Shown one piece after another: positions 1-55,413 of a DNA stretch of 64,000 nucleotides (positions are counted from its first letter, which is position 1; each line of letters opens with the position of its first letter). Origin of the DNA: a virus. Taxonomy: Duplodnaviria; Caudoviricetes. The DNA lies in the IMG/VR virus record IMGVR_UViG_3300043429_000212, positions 1,081 to 65,080 of that record; one strand, 5' to 3'. Position numbers and translations under genes: made by a program. The notes under the pieces were generated by a model. It was not told the DNA's origin, ran no database searches, and saw only the letters and a program-made list of their open reading frames with translations.

Positions 1-195
1 GTGCCGGTGAAGCCCATGCAGACTGTTCCGCTTCGCTACCTTCCGGCCCGGGCTCGGTCTCGTGTAAACGGTCAAGGTCAGCCTCGGCCTGGGCGAGTGC
101 ATCGAGCACGTCCCGCTGGCTCGCTCGACCCCGCTGCGGCCCAGGCTCGCCGTCCTTCCCTGTGGTTTTGTACATGGCTGTGTATCTGTCCAGTG

Positions 196-345
196 ATGTT
201 CACATTATCCACAGGATGTTCAAACAGGGCAAGTTATCCACAGCTGTGGATAAGCCTTAGATCTGCCTCATTTTTGAGCATTCACCTATGAAGCCCTGTG
301 GATAACTTTGTGAACAACTCGCTAGAAGCTCCGATCTATTTTTCT
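196..345. promoter_or_regulatory. oriC-like cluster of DnaA boxes
   Basis: Perfect TTATCCACA at 205-213 and 234-242; perfect TGTGGATAA at 245-253 and 297-305; degenerate boxes at 196-204 and 309-317; GATCTATTTTTCT at 333-345 resembles an E. coli oriC 13-mer. Confidence 0.8.
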
Positions 346-542
346 GAAGGGCAAGGTATGCCTGGACCCCTTGCGTCGATCCTGGGCCGTTCTAGCGCGT
401 TCTAGCGGCATGTACGTCCATACAGGTATAGCCCTTGGGTTTACTTGGTCATCTGTCCCTGCTACTCACGCGCGCGGGCGCACACGTTCGTTGGTCAGAG
501 CACCCGGCTCTGATCTGCTAGCCCTATCGACTCATCAGGGTA

Positions 543-571
543 TTGCACTAGCTCCCGTTTGCACGCACAAT
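543..571 (+). promoter_or_regulatory. sigma70-type promoter of left early operon
   Basis: TTGCAC-17 bp-CACAAT, followed by two short leader hairpins and RBS ACAGGAGG at 615-622. Confidence 0.55.
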
Positions 572-629
572 CGGGGCTCCCCGGTCGGGGACGCGCAGCA
601 CGGTGCTGCGACGGACAGGAGGTTCTGAG

Positions 630-1211
630 ATGACACGCGAAGACTGGCTTACCACCCTGATCGAAGAGGTCAGGCCCCTTTTCCCCGCCCACACTGGGCA
701 GTCCCTCCCCGCCCGCATCCGCGTCGCCTGCGGATTCCCCAGCAGCGCCCGCCGCAGCGGCGCGATTGGCGAGTGCTGGGCTGATGCCTCCAGCGCGGAC
801 GGCACGGTCGAGATCCTCATCTCGCCGGTCCTGGACGACGTCACCACGGTGGCGGCGACCCTGGTGCATGAACTCTGTCATGCCCTGCCGGGTTCGATGA
901 ACCACTCGAAGACCTTTGCGACCCACGCCGCCAACATGGGTCTGGCCCCCGGCGCCAAGGGCTGGAAAAGCACCGGCCCTGGCCCCGACTTCGACGCCCG
1001 CTATGGGGCGATCCTGGGCGCCCTGGGCGCCTACCCGCATGCGCAGTTGATCCTGTCGGCGAAGCCGGCGCAGACCACTCGCATGCTGAAGGCGACCTGC
1101 CCGTCTTGCGGGTTCACGATCAGGCTGACCCGCACCTGGGCCGAGAAAGGTCTGCCCATCTGCTCCCAGGATGGCGAGCAGTTCGTCCTTGAGTCCAACG
1201 ACGGAGAGTGA
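630..1211 (+). CDS. SprT-like zinc metalloprotease with C-terminal zinc ribbon
   Basis: LVHELCHA (HExxH) with downstream H, and CPSC..C; ATG 630 after a strong RBS. Confidence 0.75.
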   Translation: MTREDWLTTLIEEVRPLFPAHTGQSLPARIRVACGFPSSARRSGAIGECWADASSADGTVEILISPVLDDVTTVAATLVHELCHALPGSMNHSKTFATHAANMGLAPGAKGWKSTGPGPDFDARYGAILGALGAYPHAQLILSAKPAQTTRMLKATCPSCGFTIRLTRTWAEKGLPICSQDGEQFVLESNDGE

Positions 1212-1215
1212 CCCA

Positions 1216-2712
1216 ATGAACACCCGAGTCCTTCAGACCCTCCTAGCCCTGCCCGGGGCACAACTCGCCCGGGCCGCAAATGCCATCTGCGGACCTGCCG
1301 AGCGGACCAAGGTCGAGGCCGCGCAGGCCCTCGCGCAGAAGGTTTCACATGGAACAGTGAGCATGGACGACGTGCGGCTAGCGGCATCGAGCACGCCCCT
1401 CCAGCCGCCCGCCATGCCCGTCACCCTGGGCAAGCCGCAGCCCGCCTTCCAGCCGCCCCGCCCCTCCACTCCCCAGGCCGATCCCCGCATCGAGGCGACC
1501 GCCCAGGTCGCTGCCCGGACCGAGGCGGAGGTTCTCAGCCTCGCCACCGAGGTCCGGACGATCAAGGGAAATCTGGTCGGCGTCGCTCAGGCAGTGGCCC
1601 AGGCCAAGGTGCTGGCCGAGGCATCAGACCGCGCCTCGGCCACCATCATGGCCGGGATCAAGGCCGAGATCGAGGCACTGCGCGATGCTGGCCCGGAGAT
1701 CAGGACCGAGATCGCCGCCCAGGTGCGGACGGCACTCGCCCCCCTGATCGCCCAGGCCACGCCGGAGACGGCCCCGGCCATCGTCGCTGCCACTGCGGCG
1801 CCTATCGGTCGGGCTAGCTGCATGCATGCGTTCGGCGTCGACCTGCGCGACGCCCAGGGCGGACCAGTGATGGTCGATCTTTGGGACGACCCCGAGGCGG
1901 AGAGCATCGACCCCGCCTATATCTGGACCGAGTCCCTCCTGCGGCGCCTGATCCTGGGCACCGAGTCCAATGTGTGGCTAGGTGGCCCGAAGGGCACGGG
2001 CAAGAGCGAGGCCCTGCGCCAGTTCGCCGCCCGCACCGGGCGACGCTTTGTGCGGATCAACTTCCGCAAGTACAGCACCCAGGAGGACTACATCGGCGCC
2101 ACCGGCCTGGACGCGGGCAAGACGGGCTTCCAGCCCGGCCCCTTCCTGCGGGCCTACGTCCACCCGGGATGCGTGATCCTGTTGGACGAGGTCAGCAACA
2201 CCGACCCCGGCGAACTCGCCCCGCTCAACGGTCTTCTGGAGCCCCGCGCCGCCGTCACCATCGGCGGGTCAGTCTGGCGCCGCGCCTCGGGCGTGTTCAT
2301 CGCTGCCGCAGACAACACCCTCGGCACGGGTGACCAGTCGGGCCGCTATGCCGGCACTCGGGGGATGAACAGCGCCCTCATGGACCGGTTTGGGCTTGTC
2401 TCGCGCATGGACTACCTGCCGCGCAGGCTGGAGACGGACGCGCTGGTGCGCCATACAGGGTGCTCTCAGGCCCTCGCCGATCATGTGATGGACGCGATCC
2501 AGGTCTGCCGCGCCAAGGTCGATACCGGCGAGGTCATCGATGCACCGTCAATCCGCAGCGCGGTGGCATTCATTCGCGCCCTGCGACTGATGCCAGTAGA
2601 TGAAGCCTGGGCCGACACCATCGTGGCCCGCCAGCCGGTCGAGTCTCACCCGGCACTAGCAGCCGTTTACACGGCGACCATCAACCACGACACGATCAAG
2701 GGGGCACTGTGA
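1216..2712 (+). CDS. CobS/MoxR-like AAA+ ATPase
   Basis: Walker A GPKGTGKS, Walker B ILLDE, AADN sensor, ALMDRF arginine finger; adjacent to a vWA gene. Confidence 0.85.
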   Translation: MNTRVLQTLLALPGAQLARAANAICGPAERTKVEAAQALAQKVSHGTVSMDDVRLAASSTPLQPPAMPVTLGKPQPAFQPPRPSTPQADPRIEATAQVAARTEAEVLSLATEVRTIKGNLVGVAQAVAQAKVLAEASDRASATIMAGIKAEIEALRDAGPEIRTEIAAQVRTALAPLIAQATPETAPAIVAATAAPIGRASCMHAFGVDLRDAQGGPVMVDLWDDPEAESIDPAYIWTESLLRRLILGTESNVWLGGPKGTGKSEALRQFAARTGRRFVRINFRKYSTQEDYIGATGLDAGKTGFQPGPFLRAYVHPGCVILLDEVSNTDPGELAPLNGLLEPRAAVTIGGSVWRRASGVFIAAADNTLGTGDQSGRYAGTRGMNSALMDRFGLVSRMDYLPRRLETDALVRHTGCSQALADHVMDAIQVCRAKVDTGEVIDAPSIRSAVAFIRALRLMPVDEAWADTIVARQPVESHPALAAVYTATINHDTIKGAL

Positions 2713-4250
2713 TCGACACCATCAAAGCCCTGCTCGGGCGCCCGAGCATCCTGGGCTATCAGGCCCGGCACGGGCTGGAGACTTTCGCCCACGTCGCCTG
2801 CTCGGCCCTGGGTCTGCCACCCGTCCGGGTCCAGTGGGAGGCCGGCACCATGACTGCGGCAATCAACCGGCACGGGGATCTGATCCTGAGCGATATCCCC
2901 GACGATGCCCAGGTCGCCCGCAAGCAGTTCGCCCGCTGGGTCGGTTTTGTCGTGCATGAGTTGCTGCACAGGCGCTACACCGACTTCGGCGCCCACGACG
3001 GGCGTCAGTATGTTGACGCGCTGCACAACGCCATCGAGGACGCATGGATTGAGTCCCAGGCTATCCGCTCGGGACTGCTCGGCAATATCCGGGGGGTGTT
3101 GTCGGAACTGATCGACGGCATGACCACCGATGCCCTGGGGCAGGTGGCCGACTGGTCCGACCCTAAGCAGTACCCCTACAGCCTCGCCGTGTTTACACGC
3201 CCCCATGCGAGCATCAAGGCCCCGGTGCCTGGAACCCTGCTCCCCATTTGGCAGGAAGCCGCTCGCCGGGTCACCCAGGCGCAGAGCAGCGCCGATACCC
3301 TCGCCATCGCCCGATGGGTCTACGATCAACTGCGCCTCCCGCCGCACAAGCAGCAGCAGCAACAGCAGCAGCAAGCCGGCCAGGGCGACGGTCAAGGGGA
3401 CGGGCAGGGCGACGGGCAGGGGGACGGCCAGGAAAGCCCCCAGGCGCCTGATGCCGGGTCTGCCAAGGTGCCTTCCCCTGGGCAGGAAGCGGCTGACGTC
3501 GAGCCCGGCATGGAGGGTGGAGGCGGCGCCTCATTCGGGCCCACTGGGGTGCTGCCCCGCGCCGGCCTGACCAGCAGTGCCCGGTGGACCGATACATCCC
3601 CCGTGCCTGGGTCGCTGAGGTTTCAGATGCGCCGCCTCCTGGAGGCCAGCGCGACCGACGATATGGAGTCGCACCGACTGTCGGGAAACCTGGACACTCG
3701 CCGCCTCGCCGCCTCGGCCTGGACCGGGCGAGTCTTTGCCCGCCGCAGCGAAGAGGCGGGGATTGATGCCGCGGTGATCGTCCTGGTCGACATGTCCGGG
3801 TCAATGTCTGGCGAGCGGGCGAAGGTCGCGGTCCCCGCTGCAATGGCCCTGCTCGAAACAATCGAGTCTGCCCAGGCGCAGAGCATGGGGGTCGCGTTCG
3901 GGGACAACGTGGGCCCCTTCAAGACCTGGACCGAGACGGTACGCCGCATCGCCCCCCAGGCCGCCCGCCTCGCCATCGACGGCGGCACGAACGATGCTTT
4001 CTCGATCCGTTGGTGCCACGACCAACTGTTGCGCCACCCGGCGCCCAGGAAGGTGCTGATCGTCCTGACTGACGGCGTCGGTGATATGCGCGAGGCCCGC
4101 AACCAGATCAAGGCCGGCACTCGGCTCGGGATCCGGACCATTGGCATTGGGATCCAGGCCGACGTTCAGCAGGTGTACGGCCAGGGATCGCCCAACGTCG
4201 TCGCCCTGCCTGACCTTGCCAAGGTCGCCTTTCGGAGTGTCACCAAGTGA
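2709..4250 (+). CDS. CobT-like vWA-domain protein with N-terminal metallopeptidase-like domain
   Basis: VHELLH..NAIED at the N-terminus; MIDAS DMSGSM, GGT and LTDG at the C-terminus. Confidence 0.85.
   Translation: MIDTIKALLGRPSILGYQARHGLETFAHVACSALGLPPVRVQWEAGTMTAAINRHGDLILSDIPDDAQVARKQFARWVGFVVHELLHRRYTDFGAHDGRQYVDALHNAIEDAWIESQAIRSGLLGNIRGVLSELIDGMTTDALGQVADWSDPKQYPYSLAVFTRPHASIKAPVPGTLLPIWQEAARRVTQAQSSADTLAIARWVYDQLRLPPHKQQQQQQQQAGQGDGQGDGQGDGQGDGQESPQAPDAGSAKVPSPGQEAADVEPGMEGGGGASFGPTGVLPRAGLTSSARWTDTSPVPGSLRFQMRRLLEASATDDMESHRLSGNLDTRRLAASAWTGRVFARRSEEAGIDAAVIVLVDMSGSMSGERAKVAVPAAMALLETIESAQAQSMGVAFGDNVGPFKTWTETVRRIAPQAARLAIDGGTNDAFSIRWCHDQLLRHPAPRKVLIVLTDGVGDMREARNQIKAGTRLGIRTIGIGIQADVQQVYGQGSPNVVALPDLAKVAFRSVTK
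3351..3431 (+). repeat. coding low-complexity linker: poly-Gln followed by GDGQ x4
   Basis: CAG/CAA run followed by 12-bp imperfect tandem repeats. Confidence 0.9.
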
Positions 4251-4318
4251 ATGCTGACCGGGCCATGCTGGCCCTTTTCGTCCTGGTCCTGCTGCTGATG
4301 GTGGCAGGGATCATCTAA
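4247..4318 (+). CDS. 23-aa hydrophobic micropeptide MNADRAMLALFVLVLLLMVAGII
   Basis: GTGA start overlaps the upstream stop; fills the gap; single TM-like helix. Confidence 0.45.
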   Translation: MNADRAMLALFVLVLLLMVAGII

Positions 4319-4338
4319 CCCATCGAGGAGGTTTCCTG

Positions 4339-4683
4339 ATGTTCACGACCGATCTGTATGTGCGCCTGACGCACCACTTCGCCCCGGGATGGTCCGACCT
4401 GGACGACGACCGGCACGTAGGCATGGCCCGTCTTACCCCGTGGCGACTGGCCCGACCGTCTCAAGACTACGACGATGGTGGCGTTTACACGTCCACCGCC
4501 ACCGTCCGCACCCAGGACCGCCGCGCCGCCCGCGCCATCGAACGAGCCCTGGCCGATACCCTGGGGGGGTCGCGGTGCAGGCATGAGCACGACTGCTGCG
4601 GCTGCGCCTATCGACGGGTGGAGGCGAGGAGGGTCGGCAAGCACCGGTACGCGGTGCGTATGTCCGTCACGTTCAACTATTGA
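4339..4683 (+). CDS. hypothetical protein with CxHxHDCCGC motif
   Basis: RBS GAGGAGG; ORF in operon context. Confidence 0.7.
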   Translation: MFTTDLYVRLTHHFAPGWSDLDDDRHVGMARLTPWRLARPSQDYDDGGVYTSTATVRTQDRRAARAIERALADTLGGSRCRHEHDCCGCAYRRVEARRVGKHRYAVRMSVTFNY

Positions 4684-4704
4684 TTGTCAACAGGAGATGT
4701 AAAC

Positions 4705-8909: not shown

Positions 8910-9217
8910 TTCGATCTCCAGACGGGTTGTGCCCGCGCATGACTTTTGATCGAGCGGCTGCTCATGTACTCCCCCGTCTTCTCAATGAGCTTGAGCTTCG
9001 ACAGGTGTAAACAGACCGCTCCCCAGGCGTTCGGGGATGGTGGACTCGGGAAGCCGTTACGCTCGGCCCTCAATCTGACATCCTCGAACAGGGCACCTTT
9101 GTACCCTATGTCATGGAGGTATGCAAGTGCTATCTTTACTGCTTTGCTATGCCAATCTTCACCGGCATTGGACAGAGCTTGCTGAGCCCCAGCATCTCTC
9201 AGAGATTGACCGTCCAT
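8906..9217 (-). CDS. conserved phage protein, probable winged-helix DNA-binding fold
   Basis: RBS GAAGGAGG before ATG 9217; PNAWGA..SH.R..VW pattern. Confidence 0.65.
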   Translation of the reverse strand: MDGQSLRDAGAQQALSNAGEDWHSKAVKIALAYLHDIGYKGALFEDVRLRAERNGFPSPPSPNAWGAVCLHLSKLKLIEKTGEYMSSRSIKSHARAQPVWRSK

Positions 9218-9661
9218 CACTACCTCCTTCGCTTTAGGCAAGCCTCTGCCAAAGCCAGGGGTTGGGTGATCCCCCCTGTCTTGCTCTGTCCTTCCTGGAT
9301 GGAACCAAAGAAGAACTGTCTTCCTCCGTAATGCCTGTCATCCTCTGTATCGGATGCTGACCCATTGAGCAGGTGGGTAAGTCCTGCCGGCTGGTCCCTG
9401 CCGCCCCTACATCACCCTGTACGCATCGTTTGCTGCCTGTGCTGGAGGGCACATGCAGCCCGGTCCCCTGGATCACCGGCGTTGACAGGCTCGGGCACAT
9501 GCTCTGGCCCCGATGAGGTGTTTCTTGGGTTCGGCCCATGCAGGCCATCTGCTAACGCGCCCTGACGATCATCTGCACTGAACACCCCCGGCACCCGGAG
9601 CCAGAGGCTCAGTCTGGTTGTCCTGGGGTGAGAGCCCCGAGGGTGTTCGGTACAGACGATC
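9218..9661 (-). ncRNA. large structured non-coding RNA or 5' leader (~440 nt)
   Basis: Starts 6 nt after a predicted -10; 21-bp closing stem with G-U pairs favouring the - strand; many hairpins, a long-range 8-bp helix and an H-type pseudoknot; no credible ORF. Confidence 0.65.
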
Positions 9662-9666
9662 AGACC

Positions 9667-9717
9667 ATCCTACTGGATGTGATGGGGCTTTGCAAGCATG
9701 ATCTACTCGGCTACACT
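9667..9717. promoter_or_regulatory. divergent sigma70 promoters sharing a palindromic -35 (TTGCAA, 9690-9695)
   Basis: - strand TTGCAA-17-TAGGAT (-10 at 9672-9667); + strand TTGCAA-16-TACACT (-10 at 9712-9717). Confidence 0.65.
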
Positions 9718-9722
9718 GGCTT

Positions 9723-9803
9723 TCGCTCAGTTGCTTGAGCGATCTCCCTCCTGTGGCGCTGGGTAGCGCCTTTGACCCCGGCGGACACCGGGGTCTTTTT
9801 TTT
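9723..9803 (+). ncRNA. small RNA with exposed anti-Shine-Dalgarno tract and intrinsic terminator
   Basis: Hairpin TCGCTCA/TGAGCGA, single-stranded TCTCCCTCCTGT, hairpin GGCGCT/AGCGCC, terminator GACCCCGG/CCGGGGTC plus T8. Confidence 0.72.
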
Positions 9804-10167
9804 GCCCCGGCATCTCTGTGACCGTGATGACACAGCGAGGGCACTCCTTGTCTTGATGCCAGTAGATGTGCTTCTCCTTGACCTGCCTGTCGTTTAAATA
9901 GAGCTTTCCCTGGAGGAGGTCCAGGATCAGGCTCTCGTCAAGGTCTGGACGTCGGGAGGCGTACCAGATGTGGATCTCTACAGATACATCTAGTGCCGTG
10001 GGGTGACTGGCCGGGGCGCATTGCTGTTGAAACGACTCAGCGTAGGTCAGGGCCTTCTTGCTCTTGATGAGCCGGGACATGCTGCCGAACCGGACCAGCC
10101 TCCGGCTGTTGGCCTTGCTGGCGGGCTCTCCAAAAATTTCCCTTGTCTCGCAAAAAAGTGCTTGCAT
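9727..10167 (-). CDS. rusA: RusA-like Holliday junction resolvase
   Basis: GEPASKANSRR, RRPDLD and NDRQV motifs; start uncertain. Confidence 0.75.
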   Translation of the reverse strand: MQALFCETREIFGEPASKANSRRLVRFGSMSRLIKSKKALTYAESFQQQCAPASHPTALDVSVEIHIWYASRRPDLDESLILDLLQGKLYLNDRQVKEKHIYWHQDKECPRCVITVTEMPGQKKDPGVRRGQRRYPAPQEGDRSSN

Positions 10168-20414: not shown

Positions 20415-20583
20415 TGCTCATCACATCAAGCAGGGGCTCCAGTACCTGTGCATACCCTTGTGTAGAGACTGCCATCAGGGCAGTTTCAACGGCATTCATG
20501 GGCAGGCCAGGATCTGGGCCGTCTACAAGAAGGACGAGATGTCCGTCTTGAATGACGTCATTGCCCGCTTGACATCTTCTTGA
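20323..20583 (+). CDS. Ref/DUF968-like HNH-family nuclease
   Basis: PCEVCG..DAHHI..IPLCRDCH. Confidence 0.7.
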   Translation: MNNKLNAAEREHLQRIKEMPCEVCGAHGPSDAHHIKQGLQYLCIPLCRDCHQGSFNGIHGQARIWAVYKKDEMSVLNDVIARLTSS

Positions 20584-23500
20584 TTTGCTGGATGTTGGAG
20601 GCCAACTGGTTCTCCAACGTCGTGATGTTGAGGATGATGTCCTTCTTCTGATCCGCATCCATGTTGGACGCCCGGACGAAGTTCTTCATCTCCCGGTACT
20701 GCTTCATGGACTTCTCAAGATCGAGGACGTAGTCCTTGACAGCGAACAGTCCCTTGTTCTCCTGGAAGTACTCACCCCACTCCTGGGGTTGCATGTTCCT
20801 CTCCAGGAGGTTGACCGTTCTCACTGCCTCATCTACGGAGTTCTTCAACTCATAGAAGGCAGTGACCTGTCCTCGTGCCTGGGGATCTACCAGGAACCTC
20901 TTGATCACCGGCATCTGTTCAAACCGCTTTGCCGCCTTCGGGGCATCGCTGTTCATGTCGTAGATGGCGTCGAACAGATCCACCATGTATCCACCGATAG
21001 TGCCGGTGTATCCATTGATGAGTTGGTCCAGCTTCACCGGGGAGATCTGAATGCCTGTGGGCAAGTCCTTCGTTGCCCCGCCGATCAGTTGAGACAACCG
21101 AGATGTCGTGGGTCCAACCTGATAGGCCGGGGCCACATCCTCCAGGCCCTGAGACACGATAGGTCTCGTGGTGAAGAAGGAGAAGTTCGTCGCGTACTCG
21201 ATGACCGGCAGAGCCGTCTGAGGGATCGGGTTAAACGCAAGGGTGCTCATCAACTGCCGGGTCATGGACTTCATAAAGTCCTTCCCGGTGTCGTCACCAA
21301 AGCTGTACTCAAGGATCCGCTCCGGGATGACCTTGAACAGCACACCGATTTCAAACGGGATGGGGATCTTCACACCCAGAGACGGGATCAGCCAGTAGTT
21401 GTCCCGGGTCTCCTGCTCTTGCCTCTTCCACTCATCATCGTCGCTAGCAAGCATCCAGTACATGGTTGACAATGCTGCGATGGTCATGCCACGGACGAAG
21501 AACCTCTTCTGCACTTCCTTCGGATCAATGTCAGATCCCTTGGCGAATGCCGCCCGGTACAGGACATCAAGACCCTGCATCCGGGCATTCAAGAAGGGAA
21601 CCGCTGCGGTGAGAACCCGGACCATCGGGTTGCTGCCCTTGCGGTTGAAGTTCATCACCTCCAGGGCTCTGAAGATGGCTTCTGTCTCGTTCCCAGTCTC
21701 AGCCAGGGTCTTCTTGTAGATCTCCATCCGGGTTGCCGCATCAGATGCGGTAGTTCCCTTCTCCAGGGCATCCCAGAGCGAGGTGAACGGACGGGTCAGC
21801 CTCTCAGTGGTCGTGTAAACATTAGCTTCCTTGCGAAGCTCCCTGTTGAAGCGATTGGCACTGATCTCTACTCCCTGGGAGTAGTCGTACCCTCCGATGA
21901 CGCCGGAGTTCAGGAGTGCCGCGTACTCAGGGTTCTGTCCTCTCAGAGCCTTGCCAAAATTTGTCAATGTATCGACCAGCGGTGTCATGTTTACACCGGA
22001 GGACACCCAGGCAGACATGGAGTCCCGCATCATGTTGGCAAGCATGAAGGCGGGATCCTTGGTGACCAGACTTCTCAGCAGGTTGGCTGGGGCAGACAGA
22101 AGACCAATGAACGGCAGGTCTCCCAGGTTCAGGCTCTTCAACGCATCGATGAACAGAGGATCCTGAGATGAGTAGTAGGTGGCCTTGCCCTTCTCCAGGA
22201 TCTTGACCACGTTCGGGGCAGAGGACACGTAGTTGAGCCTCTGAACCTGATTGATGGCCTGGGCGACGTTGACGGCCTTCTGAGCCGCAGCGTTCTTCAT
22301 GCCCGCTTCGATGGAGTACTGGACGTTACGGATGACAGTCTCAAGGAACTCCCCGAGAGGTGCCTCTGATCCCTTGGTCTTCTTGGGAGGCTTCACCCCG
22401 GCAAGAGATGCAAAGATCTGCGGGCCGACCGTCTGCTCCCCGTCGATCTGACGATAGAAGGGAATGTAGTCGGAGTACTTCACAAACTCCTTGGCAGCAT
22501 CCTCCGTCAATACCCCGGTGTCCAGCAGATACTTGACGAGACCGTTATTGAACTCGATCCATTCCTTCTGGATGCCGTCAAACTCAGGATGGTCTTGCAG
22601 GATCTTTGCAGCTTCCGCCTGATCAGCCGGGGTGATGAACTTCGGATCCCGTCCTTGACCATACAGCCGCAGACCTCTGTTTACAGCAGCCCAGAACTGA
22701 TACTTCTGGTAGATGAAGGGATCGTTGTACTTCGCCAGCGGGGCGAAGATGGCGAGCGGACCCTTGACCGTGTTGTTGTTGTTGACAACCTCGGTGCGCC
22801 CGTTGATGTAGACCGGGATACCACCGACCCGGTCATGCACCCCCATAGCTGCGGCCAGAACACCGGCACTCATATCAGACATGAGAGCAGCAGCCTCTGC
22901 GCTTGAGTCGGCAAGTAAAGGTGCCCCGCCCATCTGGCGGACAAGCTCCTTGTCATACTCGCCCAGACGGTTGTAGCGGTTGAGGAACATCGCCCGGAAA
23001 TGAGAGGCACTCTTCGGGAAGATGGCCTCCGTGATCCGCTGTATAAACGTCTTCTCTTCTCGGGGCGTGGTAGTTTGATCAATGCGAGCCCGGGTGGCAG
23101 GATCGGTCTGATCCCGCAGGTTCATGCGCGGGCCTTCACGCAGGCTTGGCTTGGCAATCGGGATAACCTTCTTGCCTTGCTTGATCTTTTCCTGATCTCG
23201 GATGATGACGGTGTCTCCGTCGCGCTGACGGTCGTAGTCAACGAAGAACCCGTCGTACCTGATGGCAGCATCCTCTGGCCGGCCAGTCCTGTCCTTGTTG
23301 GTCAGGCCAATGATCATGCCCTTGTTGAACAGGTTTTCCTTCTGACCGGGCCTCGGGTCAAGGAAACGAGCGTCGTAGTTGTCTCCGTTCCAGACCTGGA
23401 ACTTCTCACCAGTCTTCTCATCCAGCAGAAAATCTGGCATGTCTTTCTTGCTGGTGAAAGCCATCGCCACGTTGAAGCCGTTGTTTAGACGCTTGATCAT

Positions 23501-26500
23501 GGCGTTCCAGTTGGAGCCAAGACCCACCGTCTTTCCTTCGACCACCTGAGCGACACCATCCGAGCTATAGGTCAGATGGTGGTTGTCTGCAATCGGACGC
23601 GGCGTTGCCAGCTTGGTGTAGTCATAGAACCTTACGTCCGGGAAGCCATTGATCAGCGGGGCCAGCATCTTCGGCGGGAAGTCGCTGGTCACGTTCAGCC
23701 GGATAGCTGGGGTGTAGACCTGCTTTTTAACGCGACTTTTTTTCCCTTTCTCATCCGTGACGGTCTCGAAGCCCTTGTCGCTCTTGGCCCACGCCTCAAA
23801 CCGCTTGATCTCCTCATACAGGACAATGCCGAAGTCCTCCGGGTGCATCACCAAGGCTTCAGTCTTCAAGTACTGAGACAGGCGCGGGCCGGCGCGGAAC
23901 GGACCTTCCCCACCATACAGTTCGTTCTGGCCGCTGGTCTCGCCCAGGCACAGACTCTCGCACCGGGCAGAGTTGGGACAGGTAGACAGGTTGTTCTCGT
24001 TGATCTTCTGGGCACTTGCCAAGCCAAGACCAAGAGAAGCAACGCTGTTCTCGATGTCCTCTGGAAGCTGGTATTCGTTTAGACGGGTCTTCTGTAGCTT
24101 GCCGTTCTCTCCAAGAAGAGTGCCGACGTTGTGCTCTTCCTTGAGGACTTGTCGAGCCTGGGCCAGCCTAGCCCTGCGCTGCTCCGGCGACATCTTGCGA
24201 TAGGCATCAATGCCAGACTCCAGGCCCTTGCCGATATCGCCGATGGTCGTGGTCTTGGTGACAGCCTCGCTGCGCGGCTTGTAGAGCGTGAACAGCTTGG
24301 TCATCTTCATCTTCTCGGCAAAGGCGTTACCCTCCGCGAGTTGGATGAAGAAGTCCTTGCGTCCGTCTGCGTGCTCCATGTCGAACTGAAGCAGTTCAGG
24401 CCGAACATGAACCATCACGTTGGCTTCGACCGGGCCTTGATCGATGTTCCCAAGCCTACCCCGAACAGCCGCAGGGCTGGATTCGTTGGTCAGGTAGATC
24501 CGGTTGGCAGTCGGATTGACTGCCTTGAGCCTCTTGGTCTTCGCCACCTCACGCGCACTGGCGTTGTTGGTCGGGAAGTACAAGGTCACAGTGCCATTGG
24601 CATTCAACGGCACTCCAAGGATCGGATGGTTCTCCTTGCCCTTGGCTAGCTTGCGCTCCGAATATGGAGCCTTGATGGAAGCCTTGGGCGTTTCAACGGG
24701 AACATCGATCTGGCCGGCGGAGGTGTAAGGAAGAATGCCGTTCTGATCCTCGTAAGCCTCTGCCTGCTCCTTCTCCTCGGTCGTCTCCTTCCAGACGTTG
24801 GGAGCAACCTCCCGCCCGCGAAGCTCTCCCCTCTCAGCCTTGCGGAAGATCCGCTCGGCATCAGGCTCAGCACCGAACGCTTCCTTGATGGCCTGGAAGA
24901 AGTTACGTATCTTCTTCAGAAGAGCCTGGAGCATCCCAGGAGGAGCCTTGGTCGCATCGAAGTCAGCGAACGCATCAGCGATAGCCTCTTCAATGACAGC
25001 CTCTTCATCCCCGCCGTACAGCCTCATGTAGGCGTCGTACCGGGATGTCTGTCCTTCTTTCAGAGGCTGTCTGTTTACATTCTTCTGCTTCAGGTACTGA
25101 TCGATCCACTTCTCTTTGGCTTGTCTCTCAAGAGCCGTCCACTGCTGATCAGAGAAGAGCCCAAGAACCTTCATGGCATGGATGGACTCATGCCTCAAAG
25201 CCACTACAGGATCTTCCGCATCGAGTGCCAAACTGATGACCCGGGCAGAGTACTCACCCTCTGCCTTGAGATCAGCCACTAGCTTGAGGGCAACATCCTT
25301 CAAGCCATAACGCGACATAATCCTGGTGAGAGCCTTGCCCAGAATGTCAATCTTGGCCTGGGTCTCAGGAGAAACCTTCTTGGGTTCTGAAACCTCTCGG
25401 ACGGAAGCCTTCTCTGCCGGGGCCATCTCCTTGCGGATCTCTTCCACAAGATCCGAAGAACTGGTCCAGTTGTCCCATGCGGCCTTCTGCTGACGAAGCT
25501 CCTTCTCCCGCTTCTTGAGTGCCTCGGGATCCTTGATGTCGATCCCTTCCTTCTTGGCAATCTCAGGTCTGCGGCTGGCCCCGGAGATAGCTGCCAACCT
25601 CTGAGCGATCTGGTTCTGCTTGAGGGTGGCGATCCTCGCCATGTCCTCGGCTTCCTTCATGGCCGAGTCATCGAACCCGAAGAGATCACCACCATCAGAA
25701 GGCGGCTGGTCCTTGGAGATCGTTTGAACAGCCTTGATAAGGTTTACAGCAGCAAGAGGACTCTTGCCCTCTTGGATAGCCTTCAGGCCAACGGCTTGGA
25801 GTCGGGAGTCTCCAGGGGCTGCGTTGGCGATTGCTGCTGCTCCTGCATCAGAGATGACATCGGCACGATGCGCCGCAACAAGCTCTGGACTACCTCTGGT
25901 GGCGATTGCGAAACCTTGCTTTCCCGGAGCCCGCGCCAGAAGTCCTCTTGACTCGGCATCTGCTTCTGAGATTCCTGCGTTTTCGAAGTAGGCGACATAG
26001 TCTTTTACCTTTCCTTGCTGATCCCGGATGTTCAGTTCAGCATCCAGCATCGCCGCCTGCTTGGCATCGAAACCAGTAGCCTCTTCATGGATCTGCGCAG
26101 GGATGGTCGTCTCCCCGCTGCGTCGCGCCAGATCCAACCTGTGCCGGCCAGAGATAACCTCCATCCGGCCATCGTTTCGCTTCCAGACCTGAATAGGAGC
26201 AACACCGCGCCGGTCGAACGTGCCTCCAAGAGGCTCTACAACTCCCTTGGTATCAGCGTCAGACTTGAACTGCGGGACATCCTTGGAAAGGATCAACTCA
26301 GACAGAGGCGCTTCAATGACCGGAAGCCCGCTCATGGCAGATTGCTCAGGCTTCTTTTCAGCCTGGAGCGCATCTTGCGCAGCCTCTTCCTCCTCCTTGG
26401 TGACAGCCTGTGCAGACTCAACAGGCTTCTCCTCGGGCTTTTCCTCCGCAGGCTTTAGCTCTTCAGTAGGCTTTACCTCTTCGGCAGGCTTCTCTTCCGG

Positions 26501-27868
26501 CTTCTCGCCGGCAGGCTGTGTAAACAAATCTTCCGGAGCAGCCTGCTCTTTGGTGATCTTGCTTGACTGGATCTGTTGCAGCACAGCCATCCGCTGTTCC
26601 GGAGGGACAGACATGGCGTAGGCTTTTGCCTGATCCAAAGTGCCTGCTGTTCCATCCGGGAGACGGTAGAGATCCTCTCCCTCCGTCCCGGCTGGGACGA
26701 CTGTCGGAGCGGTAGGCTCGGCTATCGGTTGCGTCAGGGGATTGGGAATCTGCTCCCGCTGGCGGGCAGCATCGATCTCACGGCTCAGACGCCTTGCGAA
26801 ATCAGCATCAGACTCACCGACCTTCTGGCCGGGAAGCAGGTTGCCTGCCGGCCTTGGAGCGGAAAGACCACCGCCCAGGACCGCCCCGGCAGCACCTTCC
26901 ATAGCAGCCGCACCAAACACACCCTGGAACAGAGGAACATCAAACCCCTCGTTCCTCAGAGCAATGTTCTCTGCGAGCTTGGACTGACCAGCCTGGGCAA
27001 ACTCAGGGGCACCTTCCCTAAACGCACCCAGGCCAACCCTTGAGGCAAACCCACGCTCTGCTTCTCTGAGAGCCTGAAGCTCTGCCGCCTCGGATGCGGC
27101 ACGCTTGCTCAGCATCCCCGCCAGAGGCTTCTCGATACCCATCCCGCCGGCCAGTGCCCCAAGACCACCAGCAACAGCCATTGACGGAAGGTTGGCACTG
27201 CTGTAAGCCTGGGCTTCCTGAGCCTTGGCTTCAGCTACCTCGTCAGAGGCGCCCTTCTGTTTATACGCTTCCTTGACGGATTCGTAGATGGATCCCTTGA
27301 CCTCACCAACGCCCATAGCAGCGCCGATGGCAGGCATGGCAACGGCACCAACACGGGCAGTGCCAAGCAAAGCACCAACAGGACCAGATGCCAACCCGGC
27401 AATGACGACCGGGGCAGTGGATCCAAGGGCTTGGGACAGCGTGTCTACGGGAGCAGTAAGGAATGCCTGGAAGCCAGCCTTGACCTGATCCAGAACACCC
27501 TTGTCTTCAGCATCCTTCAGGATCTGAGCAACCTGCCGCTGGTCATTCTTGGCCTGCGCGGACAGAAGATCTGCCAGCCATGTGTCGGCACTCTTCAGTG
27601 CCTCTGAGGCAGAGGATCCAGCCCCGAAGACGTCAGCCAGCATCCGAATGCCGCCGACCATACCCCGAGAAACCTGGACAGGAACGTCCAGGACTTGACG
27701 GAAGAAACCACTTTGCTCAGGCTGCGGGACAGGCGGGGCAGTGACGGTCTGAGGCGTATCCTGCATACGCGCCTGGATCGCCCGGATGACCTGCTCTCGC
27801 GTAGCCCCGGGAGGACCTTCAATGGAATACGTCTTGCCGTCAGGCCCTTGGATGCTGTACAGGGGCAT
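20558..27868 (-). CDS. large polyvalent (probably ejected) protein: ParB-like, zincin HExxH, ART-like, GP88-like and LPD38 domains
   Basis: PIQVW..ISGRHRL (ParB), LRHESIH, VTLYFPT..IYLT (ART-like), CPNSARCESLC/RLNVTSD/FYDYTK/GDNYDARF (GP88-like), KIPIPFEIG (LPD38). Confidence 0.8.
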   Translation of the reverse strand: MPLYSIQGPDGKTYSIEGPPGATREQVIRAIQARMQDTPQTVTAPPVPQPEQSGFFRQVLDVPVQVSRGMVGGIRMLADVFGAGSSASEALKSADTWLADLLSAQAKNDQRQVAQILKDAEDKGVLDQVKAGFQAFLTAPVDTLSQALGSTAPVVIAGLASGPVGALLGTARVGAVAMPAIGAAMGVGEVKGSIYESVKEAYKQKGASDEVAEAKAQEAQAYSSANLPSMAVAGGLGALAGGMGIEKPLAGMLSKRAASEAAELQALREAERGFASRVGLGAFREGAPEFAQAGQSKLAENIALRNEGFDVPLFQGVFGAAAMEGAAGAVLGGGLSAPRPAGNLLPGQKVGESDADFARRLSREIDAARQREQIPNPLTQPIAEPTAPTVVPAGTEGEDLYRLPDGTAGTLDQAKAYAMSVPPEQRMAVLQQIQSSKITKEQAAPEDLFTQPAGEKPEEKPAEEVKPTEELKPAEEKPEEKPVESAQAVTKEEEEAAQDALQAEKKPEQSAMSGLPVIEAPLSELILSKDVPQFKSDADTKGVVEPLGGTFDRRGVAPIQVWKRNDGRMEVISGRHRLDLARRSGETTIPAQIHEEATGFDAKQAAMLDAELNIRDQQGKVKDYVAYFENAGISEADAESRGLLARAPGKQGFAIATRGSPELVAAHRADVISDAGAAAIANAAPGDSRLQAVGLKAIQEGKSPLAAVNLIKAVQTISKDQPPSDGGDLFGFDDSAMKEAEDMARIATLKQNQIAQRLAAISGASRRPEIAKKEGIDIKDPEALKKREKELRQQKAAWDNWTSSSDLVEEIRKEMAPAEKASVREVSEPKKVSPETQAKIDILGKALTRIMSRYGLKDVALKLVADLKAEGEYSARVISLALDAEDPVVALRHESIHAMKVLGLFSDQQWTALERQAKEKWIDQYLKQKNVNRQPLKEGQTSRYDAYMRLYGGDEEAVIEEAIADAFADFDATKAPPGMLQALLKKIRNFFQAIKEAFGAEPDAERIFRKAERGELRGREVAPNVWKETTEEKEQAEAYEDQNGILPYTSAGQIDVPVETPKASIKAPYSERKLAKGKENHPILGVPLNANGTVTLYFPTNNASAREVAKTKRLKAVNPTANRIYLTNESSPAAVRGRLGNIDQGPVEANVMVHVRPELLQFDMEHADGRKDFFIQLAEGNAFAEKMKMTKLFTLYKPRSEAVTKTTTIGDIGKGLESGIDAYRKMSPEQRRARLAQARQVLKEEHNVGTLLGENGKLQKTRLNEYQLPEDIENSVASLGLGLASAQKINENNLSTCPNSARCESLCLGETSGQNELYGGEGPFRAGPRLSQYLKTEALVMHPEDFGIVLYEEIKRFEAWAKSDKGFETVTDEKGKKSRVKKQVYTPAIRLNVTSDFPPKMLAPLINGFPDVRFYDYTKLATPRPIADNHHLTYSSDGVAQVVEGKTVGLGSNWNAMIKRLNNGFNVAMAFTSKKDMPDFLLDEKTGEKFQVWNGDNYDARFLDPRPGQKENLFNKGMIIGLTNKDRTGRPEDAAIRYDGFFVDYDRQRDGDTVIIRDQEKIKQGKKVIPIAKPSLREGPRMNLRDQTDPATRARIDQTTTPREEKTFIQRITEAIFPKSASHFRAMFLNRYNRLGEYDKELVRQMGGAPLLADSSAEAAALMSDMSAGVLAAAMGVHDRVGGIPVYINGRTEVVNNNNTVKGPLAIFAPLAKYNDPFIYQKYQFWAAVNRGLRLYGQGRDPKFITPADQAEAAKILQDHPEFDGIQKEWIEFNNGLVKYLLDTGVLTEDAAKEFVKYSDYIPFYRQIDGEQTVGPQIFASLAGVKPPKKTKGSEAPLGEFLETVIRNVQYSIEAGMKNAAAQKAVNVAQAINQVQRLNYVSSAPNVVKILEKGKATYYSSQDPLFIDALKSLNLGDLPFIGLLSAPANLLRSLVTKDPAFMLANMMRDSMSAWVSSGVNMTPLVDTLTNFGKALRGQNPEYAALLNSGVIGGYDYSQGVEISANRFNRELRKEANVYTTTERLTRPFTSLWDALEKGTTASDAATRMEIYKKTLAETGNETEAIFRALEVMNFNRKGSNPMVRVLTAAVPFLNARMQGLDVLYRAAFAKGSDIDPKEVQKRFFVRGMTIAALSTMYWMLASDDDEWKRQEQETRDNYWLIPSLGVKIPIPFEIGVLFKVIPERILEYSFGDDTGKDFMKSMTRQLMSTLAFNPIPQTALPVIEYATNFSFFTTRPIVSQGLEDVAPAYQVGPTTSRLSQLIGGATKDLPTGIQISPVKLDQLINGYTGTIGGYMVDLFDAIYDMNSDAPKAAKRFEQMPVIKRFLVDPQARGQVTAFYELKNSVDEAVRTVNLLERNMQPQEWGEYFQENKGLFAVKDYVLDLEKSMKQYREMKNFVRASNMDADQKKDIILNITTLENQLASNIQQIKKMSSGQ

Positions 27869-32069: not shown

Positions 32070-33710
32070 TCACTGAGTCAAGTCCCAGAACGACAGCGAG
32101 CCCACGGCATCGCCTGTGGTCGCCCCGGAGACCGTGCGGATCTGCACGGTGTAGATGTCGCTGACGTTCGCAAGCGACGCCCCAAGCTGCAAGTCCCAGT
32201 TGTACCCCGCAGGATCAGCCAGAGGGTTGTTCCCGCCGCTGCCGCTGGATGTAACGTAGTCCGTTTGAACGATGGTGCCACCGGAGATGGCTATGGCCGA
32301 TACGTCGTACTGGACGTTGGAGTCAGTGGGGACTGACAACCAAGCAGAGTTGCTGATCTCATACGTAGTAACAACCGCTGCCCCACCGCCCGCCGCAACA
32401 GTAGCGGTCGCATTGGTGGATGCTGTGATGGTGTAAGTGTTAACGCCCAGAACGGTGATCTGATACCGACCGTTCAGGGTTAGACCGCCTACCGCAGCAG
32501 CGCCGGAATAGTTTACGTAGTCCCCCGTTGTCCCGCCGTGTCCTGTATCGGTCACTGTAACGGTTGCAGATCCGTTAACAGTGGCAAACGGGTTGTTGAG
32601 TGTTACCGTTCTACGGATCAGGGTCGGGTTCTTGACCAGTGCCACCTCGTAGTTCTGGCTGGTGGTAGGCAGTACCTGGACCCGCTGCGGCAGGACAACT
32701 GCACCCAGCGCCGAGGAAGACAGCCTGATAGACACCAGCGGCAGGAAGGTCGAACCAATCGTGCCGAGGATCGATGTGCGCCTCGCCACATGACCTGGGG
32801 AGTACTGCTCATACCCGCCTTCGGAGATCACCGAAGAGCAGATAGATTTCATGGACGCAGCAATCCCAGTGGAAGAGATGATCTCGTAACGCACCGGCAG
32901 GATCGCCGTTGTCATGTAAACGCTGGTGATATCGTTGGCGTTGTGGAAGGTGTGGCAGACGATGTACTCACCGTTGATGATGAACCCACACCGCACCGAG
33001 CCCACACCCAGCCATTCAAAGTCGATCCACAGGATCTGCGCCTTGGACGGGTCCAACGTGTAGCCGCTCAGCCCGGTGCCGTCCAGCTTGTCGCCGTTCC
33101 AACTTGACTGCGGAACAGTACGCACATCACTGGGCGTGCCCGGGGTAGGGGTAGAACTAGACCGCAAGACGAAGGAGTAGACCCCGTCCACTCGCTGGAA
33201 GAACACCCCGTTGCCTGTGTTGTAGTAGCCAACCCGCTGCGTCAGGCTTGTGCTTGCGCTGCTGTCCATCACAAAGGTGGCGAGGACAAGCAGGCCCTTC
33301 CCAGGCTGATACGGGAGTGAACGGTAGCTCTGCCGGATGACAGAACCCGCACCGCCAGAAGTGACCTCCATCTTGACGGCGGCTTCATTGGACAGGAAAG
33401 ATGTTGTTCCTGTGCCTGTCGTTGCAACATCAAACTGATTGTCTGCGGCGTAGCGGTTCTGGCTGTCGAAGAGCGTGTAGGGTGCGCTGATCCTCAGACG
33501 GCCAAACGCATCGACGTTGGTGCCGCCGATTGATACCGGGACGGTTGTCGAGGATGCGTCCACGATGCGCTCCAGAAGATTGTCTAGCTGGTTGAAGTAG
33601 ATCCGCAGGATGCTCAGCAGCTTGTCAAAGTACTGTGCGTCATAGGTGCGCGTTGGAAGAGGCAAGGCCGGAGCCCGGAACCTCTTGATGATGTTTGCCC
33701 AGATGGTCAA
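32070..33710 (-). CDS. tail-associated structural protein
   Basis: N-terminal LRIYFNQLD helix, DAFGRLRIS motif, beta-rich body. Confidence 0.65.
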   Translation of the reverse strand: MTIWANIIKRFRAPALPLPTRTYDAQYFDKLLSILRIYFNQLDNLLERIVDASSTTVPVSIGGTNVDAFGRLRISAPYTLFDSQNRYAADNQFDVATTGTGTTSFLSNEAAVKMEVTSGGAGSVIRQSYRSLPYQPGKGLLVLATFVMDSSASTSLTQRVGYYNTGNGVFFQRVDGVYSFVLRSSSTPTPGTPSDVRTVPQSSWNGDKLDGTGLSGYTLDPSKAQILWIDFEWLGVGSVRCGFIINGEYIVCHTFHNANDITSVYMTTAILPVRYEIISSTGIAASMKSICSSVISEGGYEQYSPGHVARRTSILGTIGSTFLPLVSIRLSSSALGAVVLPQRVQVLPTTSQNYEVALVKNPTLIRRTVTLNNPFATVNGSATVTVTDTGHGGTTGDYVNYSGAAAVGGLTLNGRYQITVLGVNTYTITASTNATATVAAGGGAAVVTTYEISNSAWLSVPTDSNVQYDVSAIAISGGTIVQTDYVTSSGSGGNNPLADPAGYNWDLQLGASLANVSDIYTVQIRTVSGATTGDAVGSLSFWDLTQ

Positions 33711-35884: not shown

Positions 35885-35888
35885 GTGC

Positions 35889-36392
35889 TTACCTCAAGAA
35901 CAGCGCACGCTCATCTCTGCGCCGCTTGACAAGACCCGGGAGTTCCTTGCCGCCAGCCTTGGTCCATTGCATGAACGCATCTGCGGCACCTTCGATGTCA
36001 TCACGGTTTGCCTTCATGCGGATCTGGCTGCGTTGAAGATTCCCTAGCCCTGCGTTGTACGCAAAAGAGACCAGAGCGTCGAAGCGCCCTTGATGACCAG
36101 CACAGCCGGGAACCAGACGAAGAACACCTCGTTCAAAAGCAGCGATGTCCACCTCGAATAGTCTCTCGATCTCTTCCTTGGACCAGACACGGTTGTGTTC
36201 TGGACGGAGAGGATAGTCCTTTCTGATGAACCCGGCATATCCATCCTTGCGAGTCATAGGCAGACGGATTTGGTCCTGATACAGGACATGTCCGTACCCA
36301 ATAGTCCAGATGTGCGCAGGGCACAAGTAGGGCTTTGTCCTGTAGCCCTCATACCTGTGCATCAAAGCGGCGCCCTCTGGACTCAGCTTCAC
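35889..36392 (-). CDS. endolysin, GH24 lysozyme
   Basis: EG..PYLCPAHIWTIGYGH, FDALVSFAYNAG, GLVKRRRDE. Confidence 0.92.
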   Translation of the reverse strand: MKLSPEGAALMHRYEGYRTKPYLCPAHIWTIGYGHVLYQDQIRLPMTRKDGYAGFIRKDYPLRPEHNRVWSKEEIERLFEVDIAAFERGVLRLVPGCAGHQGRFDALVSFAYNAGLGNLQRSQIRMKANRDDIEGAADAFMQWTKAGGKELPGLVKRRRDERALFLR

Positions 36393-36892
36393 TTCTTGCT
36401 CCACTGCCTGCTGCCAAACCAGAACCCGATGATCCCGCCCAGCATGGCCATCTCATCTTCACTGAAGATGATCGCGGTAACACGGATCAGATCATCCACC
36501 GACAGGATCAGGCCCGGGTGCTTCCAGACGTACAGCGTCAGCGCAGCGTTGATCAGCACCAACTCGATGATGAAAATATAGGTCACCGTCGGGCGCACCG
36601 TGCCGACATAGTTTGCCACCCAGCGGCTGGCTTTCTCCAGCACCTTCTCATCGTGCCTGAGCGCGGCCTCGGTCATCTGCGCCTCAGTCTGCATCGCAAC
36701 TTGCTCGACGCGGATCTCCTCCATCTTGGCCTGGGAAGCGTACCCCTGGGCCGCAAGCTGGAGTTCACGCTCGGTCTGAAGCCGCGCCAGGGCAATCTCG
36801 TGCTTCTGATCGGACTTGTTCTGGAAGAACTCCAGCAGCTTTGGGAGACCGCTGATCAGCAGACCACCGAGGGTAGACAGAAGCGACAGCAT
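36389..36892 (-). CDS. holin-like membrane protein
   Basis: Several TM segments, VRPTVTY, IIGFWFGSR; adjacent to the endolysin. Confidence 0.7.
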   Translation of the reverse strand: MLSLLSTLGGLLISGLPKLLEFFQNKSDQKHEIALARLQTERELQLAAQGYASQAKMEEIRVEQVAMQTEAQMTEAALRHDEKVLEKASRWVANYVGTVRPTVTYIFIIELVLINAALTLYVWKHPGLILSVDDLIRVTAIIFSEDEMAMLGGIIGFWFGSRQWSKK

Positions 36893-37167: not shown

Positions 37168-37181
37168 GATGGCTCCTTAGC

Positions 37182-55357: not shown

Positions 55358-55413
55358 GAGTAACCCGACTGGTGCGCTTCTTCGAGAGGCGTGTCGGGTG
55401 TTCTTGCGCTTGA

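Follow-up and report, generated by a model that had tools for sequence, protein, structure and literature searches.

In translational riboswitches and leaders of the preQ1-II and SAM-II type, a pseudoknot takes in the ribosome-binding site. The late leader of phage lambda, PR'-6S RNA-tR', is a promoter-proximal, terminated leader. In elements of the HK022 put type, the nascent RNA binds RNA polymerase and enables it to read through terminators. We analyzed a window of 64 kb (the whole stretch studied, 64,000 nt) from the 65,080-bp IMG/VR virus record IMGVR_UViG_3300043429_000212. A first-pass annotation, made from the sequence alone, had called the gap between genes at 9218-9661 on the minus strand an undescribed large structured non-coding RNA (ncRNA) heading the replication operon. 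We found that the gap holds a member of a family of structured RNAs that is carried by many otherwise unrelated freshwater phages and is apparently uncatalogued. To our knowledge, few new RNA classes are as large as this one and combine two pseudoknots with near-invariant junctions and natural variants in the hundreds. Earlier classes of this kind proved to be ribozymes, riboswitches or RNA-only assemblies.

We found that the gap is almost certainly a real structured ncRNA. Read on the minus strand, its 444 nt have a minimum free energy (MFE) of -195.1 kcal/mol (z = -3.33), and 0 of 100 shuffled sequences folded as well. The plus strand gave z = -1.49 in the shuffle test. Eight IMG/VR loci carry the entire region, 85-91% identical, ahead of the same gene of 103 amino acids (aa). 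The window and six of these loci were aligned (L007 and L008, with the same score as L009, were omitted). In the seven sequences of this clade, the helices proposed in the first-pass annotation, together with two helices of the family, were paired in 94.0% of 602 cells of the alignment, compared to 38-46% for slid partners. Both sides had changed in 8 of 88 pairs: three in the rod hairpin at the head of the element, one in helix P2, one in the hairpin CCGGU/ACCGG, two in the GCUGC-UGUGC hairpin and one in GCAGG/CCUGC. Three other proposed helices, the long-range helix GCCTGTCA/TGACAGGC (which is part of the MFE structure), CATCC/GGATG and CAGGGG/CCCCTG, are present but invariant in 7/7 sequences, and hence say nothing about covariation.

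The region does not behave as a coding sequence. It had been described as free of open reading frames (ORFs), and this needs qualification: it contains one ORF of 104 aa (9234-9548) and one of 60 aa (9412-9594), but neither is conserved in the clade. The first-pass annotation had named a conserved, translated ORF at 9234-9548 as the observation that would speak against an RNA. That frame is open in only 2/7 sequences and is broken by frameshifting indels and stops in the other five, and the 60-aa frame is open in only one. Variable columns of the clade alignment fell on codon positions 1, 2 and 3 in the numbers 22, 22 and 18. Indels of 1 nt occur within the most conserved core hairpin, and Pfam gave no match for the protein read over the gap.

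The gap also failed to match the known RNA families that we searched. Rfam 15 (4227 models, including group I and II introns, RNase P, tmRNA, riboswitches, GOLLD, ROOL, raiA, C4 and pRNA) was run over the whole window and gave no match in the gap at the gathering threshold. With the limit relaxed to E <= 10, the best scores within 9000-9900 were 13-22 bits, against cut-offs of 34-290. ARAGORN found no tRNA or tmRNA genes in the window or in seven family loci. The earlier statement that the region has no group I intron, RNase P, tmRNA or tRNA hallmark agrees with these searches. The call of an undescribed large structured ncRNA is likewise upheld by the lack of an Rfam match, the strong covariation (compensatory pairs are present both in the clade and in the family model described below), the wide conservation and the RNA-library contigs that lie on the element.

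The family was found from a single relative. Among GenBank phages, blastn gave one match of 54 nt, in the metagenome-assembled podovirus MW202484, under a gene annotated as "hypothetical protein"; this is the only GenBank phage record that carries the element. The MW202484 core, used as a 22-mer pattern, occurred in at least 119 IMG/VR stretches, and a scan for the family 3' motif found at least 120. Of the new 3'-motif loci with enough upstream sequence, 69/76 were without the class-A core. At least 163 full elements were extracted, 134 of them distinct (76 of class A, 52 of class B, 4 of class C and 2 others), with lengths of 230-403 nt (median 279). Across the core classes, helix P1 occurs in compensatory versions: GGG/CCC, GAG/CUC, UCCA/UGGA, UGACU/AGUCA, GACG/CGUC and GCGA/UCGC. 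Rfam 15 gave 0 matches in 10 family loci; locus L042, at E <= 10, gave one match of 15.4 bits. A scan of genomes with a 16-mer returned at least 120 stretches. Among the loci screened with nhmmer, one was a full member (L173, in a Betaproteobacteria metagenome-assembled genome) and one a partial member (L216); the other 16-mer matches are due to chance, and the scan is no measure of host range.

The window and the complete genome MW202484 each carry a single copy of the element. These two phages share only four ORF-level matches, one of them the element itself, which is the most conserved stretch common to these otherwise unrelated genomes. The element was absent ahead of 27 more remote homologues of the 103-aa gene.

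Several loci showed features worth recording separately. In L116, a natural deletion has removed ~170 nt, and the 5' core (...GAACCCGA) is fused straight to the 3' motif (UCCACCCUUGG...AUG). L058 and L061 carry the 5' domain (core, P2 and junction) as a tandem duplicate ahead of the remaining element. In L107, L110, L046 and L149 a T-arm-like GGTTCGAnTCC hairpin lies in the spacer ahead of the element; its reading as a tRNA 3' end was dropped, and ARAGORN finds no tRNA in 7/7 loci. In MW202484, the coding sequence (CDS) at 33533-33892 annotated as a hypothetical protein falls entirely on the RNA element and has probably been annotated in error, a point for correction in the database. The same record has large unannotated gaps at 34157-34842 and 35677-37294.

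We found that the family structure is supported by covariation. The model contains P1, P2, the outer pairs of P3, P4, P6 and two pseudoknots. PK1 joins the P4 loop to a strand ~60 nt downstream, after GGAUGA/GAAU, and PK2 joins the loop GGUGR to the 3' YCACC. The model was evaluated on 54 of 64 representatives; the ten omitted were the four sequences of the window clade (the window, L003, L005 and L006) and six others that have large insertions or aberrant ends. Its pairs were formed in 99.6% of 1499 cells, compared to 24-45% for slid controls. Compensatory changes occurred in 20/28 pairs (247 cells), a level that 0 of 500 shuffles reached. They were found in all three pairs of P1, in three of the four pairs of P2 and in all six pairs of PK1, which was 100% paired. 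PK2 was likewise paired in every cell. The variable pair of PK2 was G:C (GGUG-G with C-CACCC) in 45 sequences and A:U (GGUG-A with U-CACCC) in 11, with 0 exceptions among the 56 that could be parsed. RNAalifold independently found P1, P2, PK1, P5 and the closing pairs of a variable hairpin (P7). G-U pairs, which on the other strand would be A-C, are frequent (36 at one P2 pair, for example), and the strand is therefore fixed. We consider the covarying structure and its strand to be established.

Pairing near the 3' end was less regular. A local 3' hairpin was paired in 81.6% of cells, and CAAGG:CCUUG in 88.9%, with one compensatory pair in five sequences that may come from one clade. We considered these two helices as the states of a switch and, at these levels of pairing, did not keep the proposal. 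From their order, GGUGR:YCACC and CAAGG:CCUUG seem hard to form together within one molecule, and might be alternative states or intermolecular contacts. A helix of 5' CCCAAG with a middle CUUGGG (CCCACA/UGUGGG in L143) proved not to be general, being absent from class-B cores. A likeness of the 3' tail to the 3' end of 16S rRNA was dropped in the absence of covariation support. Clade effects overwhelmed an all-against-all listing of column covariation, which was set aside.

We found that the 3' end of the element is tied to a start codon. In 50/64 representatives CACCC is followed, at a distance of exactly 16 nt, by an AUG, which is preceded by a GGAG or GGGG Shine-Dalgarno sequence directly 3' of the pseudoknot strand. 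Of these AUGs, 25 open ORFs of at least 50 codons and 25 open mini-ORFs of 3-43 codons, which often overlap or couple to the next start. The first codons (NCU RAA) are conserved together with the element, even when fused to unrelated proteins. A search of the strand that carries the element gave a first downstream ORF of at least 60 codons in 52 of the 55 representatives with the 3' motif. The genes that come next are diverse. In 29 sampled representatives they include replication initiators (matches to the corresponding PHROGs in 4/29), DpdA-like transglycosylases, major head proteins, YbcO/HNH nucleases, ParB-like and Mom-like proteins, PAPS reductase and ART-bearing polyvalent giant proteins. 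Upstream genes likewise differ between members.

Sequences upstream of the element also showed a common arrangement. A run of at least four T residues within 55 nt upstream, immediately 3' of a highly stable fold (median -44.7 kcal/mol per 110 nt), was present in 44/58 representatives. In L004, the sole representative of the window clade among the 44, the T-run comes from the rod's own 3' arm. Sites resembling sigma-70 promoters (at least 9 of 12 matches) were found between -260 and -80 in 20/54 representatives, compared to 6/54 in a control region and 9/54 in shuffled sequences. The element is part of a cassette, which runs from a promoter-like site through a rod with a U-run, the RNA and the Shine-Dalgarno sequence to an AUG 16 nt past YCACCC. 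The cassette claim draws on our own sigma-70 match scan and fold test, a weaker kind of evidence.

The element is present in RNA libraries. Metatranscriptome contigs from four RNA-library runs, from three studies, lie on the region. In run X19, a 292-nt contig covers 9256-9547 with 0 differences at a depth of 9.8, and the flanks have no cover in that run. Another RNA-library contig matches 9325-9557, also with 0 differences. Stretches of the window without RNA-contig cover are no evidence of silence.

What does the element do? The reading that we favor, and to which we give an even chance, is that it is a cis-acting 5' leader that gates expression of the genes downstream, because the end of the fold is a translation start with constant spacing and the cassette always faces a gene. 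The element is probably a portable control element, and not a replication primer, because the conserved RNA precedes diverse genes in otherwise unrelated phages. Both the action in cis and the regulatory logic are what we infer from this arrangement. In the window, minus-strand transcription would begin at or near 9661, from the conserved promoter-like site, and would yield a long 5' leader of the replication operon (103-aa protein through primase-helicase). This leader would consist of the 95-nt rod followed by an RNA of ~310 nt with P1, P2, P3, a long-range or pseudoknot helix and a loop-to-3'-tail pseudoknot, GGGUGAU:AUCACCC. Across the family, the pseudoknot strand YCACC-CUUGG, which abuts or overlaps the Shine-Dalgarno sequence, would set the share of transcripts from a strong upstream promoter that is translated. 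The fold might also set transcript survival or read-through of the rod and U-run. The trigger would come from the host or the phage, and could be a ligand, a protein, the ribosome or RNA polymerase. In the window clade, with the ribosome-binding site ~45 nt away, control would be less direct and might act via mRNA stability, processing or standby binding.

A broader proposal, which we hold only tentatively, is that the RNA class is new and is a sensor (riboswitch-like), catalytic or self-assembling. Unrelated freshwater phages would swap it as an expression cassette that couples a host signal or machine to the gene behind it. The host machine might be the ribosome, RNA polymerase or a defence factor, and the loop-tail pairings that are hard to form together might be the switch or an intermolecular contact. 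As in riboswitches, there is a conserved aptamer-like fold with covariation. Downstream genes that share a pathway indicating a ligand were not found among the family members.

A number of observations weigh against a cis-acting leader. The downstream genes have no common function, unlike those of classical riboswitch regulons, and the candidate switch helices are the two that pair least regularly (81.6% and 88.9%). The window clade is without the fixed spacing of Shine-Dalgarno sequence and AUG, and in 25/64 representatives the conserved AUG opens only a mini-ORF. In the two loci scanned (L044 and L063), a standard scan for promoters and terminators missed both the leader promoter and the rod. 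The RNA-library evidence consists of contigs, which do not fix ends or strand and may reflect DNA carry-over, and the cover of the element alone in run X19 is explained no less well by a stable processed RNA than by a leader. By eye, one subgroup (L042, L047, L048, L054, L086, L104, L107, L110 and L111) has a near-consensus promoter, TTGACA-N17-TATAAT, 10-60 nt after the element and before the major capsid gene. In this capsid subgroup the next gene may be outside the control of the element altogether. The same subgroup has a further conserved hairpin (GGGCCAUGGACAACCGCAAGGCCCAUG) between the mini-ORF and the capsid gene, which may be a second regulatory RNA, and a scaffold-like gene upstream.

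Some of these observations would be expected if the element were a stable, independent ncRNA cut from the leader. Such an RNA could act as a ribozyme or as a host-factor decoy, or form a particle by self-assembly or with protein. It would be encoded by a moron-like RNA gene with its own promoter, and would lie ahead of other genes only by accident. We regard this, the main alternative to the leader, as possible, though doubtful. Its size, two pseudoknots and near-invariant junctions recall the large ncRNAs of unknown function, and the unit moves among unrelated phages and gene contexts while staying single-copy in each genome. The X19 contig, the promoter-like site that follows the element in the capsid subgroup and the loop-tail pairings, which are awkward in one molecule and may reflect alternative states or intermolecular pairing, are also consistent with a free RNA. 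However, there is no terminator after the element, and neither cleavage sites nor partners are in evidence. The passage of the 3' end into a Shine-Dalgarno sequence and a fixed AUG (50/64), with the NCU RAA codons kept, is hard to explain for an RNA that acts on its own. The fixed start codon is also unexpected for a processive antitermination element of the put type, which would allow polymerase to read through terminators in the long operon downstream. We consider this explanation unlikely. The element does follow closely on a promoter-like site where long operons begin, and the cassette contains terminator-like rods with U-runs, but these are upstream of the element, which therefore cannot help polymerase past them. 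There is one copy per genome, and no likeness in sequence or structure to any Rfam family.

The first-pass annotation had suggested a replication primer or origin RNA that, by the logic of ColE1 RNA II, would stand in for a protein initiator. The position of the element at the head of a primase-helicase operon, the replication initiators next to it in 4/29 representatives and a small terminator-like hairpin nearby on the plus strand agree with that suggestion. But other members precede genes for major head, Mom-like, DpdA-like, PAPS reductase, ParB-like and polyvalent giant proteins, most members end in a ribosome-binding site and start codon, and the element is missing ahead of the 27 remote homologues of the gene that follows it in the window. 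Iterons are absent from the region, where the only repeats are two of 10-12 nt, each in two copies. We therefore think it very improbable that the element is a primer. A scaffold for a ribonucleoprotein formed with the small downstream proteins, also suggested earlier, is unlikely because the neighboring proteins are not conserved across the family. The least probable explanation, to which we give practically no weight, is a protein-coding gene (ORF 9234-9548 or the hypothetical protein of MW202484). The 104-codon frame is open in the window and a CDS is annotated over the MW202484 copy. Against this stand the frame broken in 5/7 clade members, the even spread over codon positions (22/22/18), the 1-nt indels in the most conserved core hairpin and the absence of a Pfam match.

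The window's copy begins with a promoter-like site. The -35-like hexamer TTGCAA (9695-9690) and the -10-like hexamer TAGGAT (9672-9667), 17 nt apart, are invariant in 7/7 clade members. A promoter scan by consensus does not call TTGCAA-N17-TAGGAT, which scores 8 of 12. A transcript start near 9661 seems likely because the two hexamers stay invariant while the spacer drifts. The start had been predicted at the base of the rod, and the invariant hexamers are consistent with that position. TTGCAA is palindromic and could also act in a plus-strand promoter. The proposed 95-nt rod (9661-9567) at the head of the transcript was confirmed: it is part of the MFE structure (24 pairs), was paired in 92.3% of cells and has three compensatory pairs among the seven sequences. 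It appears to be the counterpart of the rod and U-run of the family, but has no U-run and abuts the core.

The element itself follows directly after the rod and extends over ~310 nt (9567 to ~9256, minus strand). The family profile matched the window with nhmmer at E = 5.1e-18 over 9567-9483 (4.8e-15 in a second search). The family 5' core is made up of P1 and the junction C-R-C-G-W-U-A-G, and both are present in the window. The class-A core CGUCAGGGCGCGUUAGC (9567-9551) holds the 5' strand of P1, GGG (9562-9560), which pairs with 9529-9527 and encloses J1/2 and the P2 hairpin (GGCC, 9546-9543 with 9536-9533, loop UGCAUG). The one compensatory pair of P2 in the clade was counted above. The conserved junction AAGAAACACC (9526-9517) falls in columns that are nearly invariant in the 54-sequence alignment. 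It is followed by the P3 hairpin CGGG...CCCG (9512-9492), in the place of which relatives have, by eye, CGAUCA...UGAUCG. P3 was paired in 62.5% of cells in the clade count, a value lowered by alignment gaps.

The central part of the window's copy is expanded. The 8-bp long-range helix, as RNA GCCUGUCA/UGACAGGC, joins 9490-9483 to 9340-9333. It appears to be a register-shifted counterpart of PK1, with extra hairpins between its strands, because the flanking conserved words match (AGCCUGUCA... and GGAUGA...). Clade-specific hairpins make up ~70 nt. Two of the inserted ones were both predicted in the first-pass annotation: CCGGU/ACCGG (9479-9460) and GCUGC-UGUGC/GCACA-GCAGC (9459-9432). Both were 100% paired, with one and two compensatory pairs, respectively. 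The next loop is homologous to the GGUGG-N-CAAGG loop of the family. It contains A1, GGGUGAU (9417-9411), which pairs with 9270-9264 over 7 bp, and A2, UAGGGG (9409-9404), which is complementary to CCCCUG at 9261-9256. PK2 of the window is thus GGGUGAU/AUCACCC, in the A:U state, and the second loop-tail pairing, UAGGGG:CCCCUG, is altered from that of the family with its complementarity kept. Of the H-type pseudoknot proposed farther on, only the stem stood up. The hairpin GCAGG/CCUGC (9387-9369) has C-G, U-A and A-U at its second pair among relatives. The loop pairing ACCCA:TGGGT keeps all five pairs in the window alone; the G opposite the last C is C or U in 6/7 sequences, without compensation.

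At its 3' end the window's copy departs from the family. CAGGGG (9278-9273), B1 AUCACCC (9270-9264) and B2 CCCCUG (9261-9256) are invariant in the clade, and this segment (9278-9256) corresponds to the YCACCC 3' motif. The clade-specific spacer hairpin that follows (9255-9231), offered earlier as the last hairpin before the ribosome-binding site, is variable and was poorly kept, with 73% of cells paired. The Shine-Dalgarno sequence AAGGAGG (9229-9223) and ATG (9217-9215) of the operon's first gene, both assigned from sequence, come next. In the window clade there is no Shine-Dalgarno sequence and AUG at +16, and the UUG found there is no credible start. The ATG at 9217 is 52 nt beyond the C of CACCC (9268), behind the variable hairpin. 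The window's copy is a divergent, expanded member of the family, because the fixed spacing to the start codon has been lost and the ATG lies behind an extra hairpin.

The genes around the element read on the minus strand in the order RusA-like gene (10209-9727), gap (9661-9218), 103-aa gene (9217-8909), three small ORFs and primase-helicase (8136-6439). The primase-helicase had been named before and is borne out by its Toprim and DnaB_C domains (Pfam and PHROGs); the RusA-like gene is similarly identified by matches to Pfam RusA and PHROG 34. The 103-aa gene belongs to phrog_27658, of unknown function, and tblastn homologues confirm its reading frame. Pfam and PHROGs gave no informative match for the three small ORFs. 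The description of the small downstream proteins as winged helix-turn-helix-like and HNH-like therefore finds no support in these databases, which return families of unknown function or no match.

Other features of the window were noted in passing. On the plus strand, a terminator-like hairpin with T8 (9774-9795) lies within the 3' tail of the RusA-like ORF. It is preceded by two small hairpins with, by eye, compensatory variation in relatives. The region (9725-9803) has a weak, sub-threshold likeness to anti-hemB (22.2 bits, cut-off 49.5), and may encode a small antisense RNA of the oop type. The only Rfam match in the window at gathering score is an abiF RNA motif at 55363-55398 on the minus strand (37.7 bits, cut-off 37). 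ORFs of 2436 and 1907 codons lie at 20558-27868 and 38105-43828 on the minus strand; in other family members, giant ART-bearing "polyvalent" proteins are encoded by the genes after the element. The GC content is 62-68% over positions 1-4700 and 54-60% elsewhere. Positions 1-4700 may belong to flanking host DNA or to a foreign module; this would matter for the prophage status of the virus.

No description of the element was found in Rfam 15 or by full-text searches of the literature. A 2023 catalogue reports 10,006 candidate viral RNAs from IMG/VR (PMC10690425). This RNA is unmentioned in the portions of that paper and of bioRxiv 10.64898/2026.09.22.753630 covered here, and the supplements of the catalogue may list it as a candidate. 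The element occupies the point from which early, replication or structural operons are controlled. It gives a defined and testable handle on the timing of gene expression in uncultured freshwater phages, and may serve as a compact, portable regulatory part.

Compared with described systems, the element has partial likenesses to several. With the ColE1 RNA II primer it shares, in the window, a long structured RNA upstream of replication functions. Unlike RNA II, the family has no fixed link to replication genes, its members end in a start codon, and origin features are absent. Like the lambda PR'-6S RNA-tR' leader, it has a promoter-like site, a strong hairpin and U-run within 100-170 nt and a long operon after them. 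It differs from that leader in the further conserved RNA of 250 nt beyond the terminator-like rod, in its variable upstream genes and in that no Q-like partner was identified. The RNAs of the GOLLD, ROOL and raiA type are, so far as the sources covered here describe them, also large, rich in pseudoknots and invariant junctions, phage-borne, of unknown function and found in lake-type metagenomes. The element has no similarity to their Rfam models, is smaller (230-400 nt), ends in a translation start and has no adjacent tRNA (ARAGORN, 7/7 loci). Compared to preQ1-II and SAM-II, it is three to five times larger, brings its own promoter-like site and rod, precedes genes without a common function and matches no Rfam riboswitch model. 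Like those RNAs, it places a complex fold in cis directly 5' of a Shine-Dalgarno sequence and start codon, and its pseudoknot strand YCACC-CUUGG abuts or overlaps the Shine-Dalgarno sequence.

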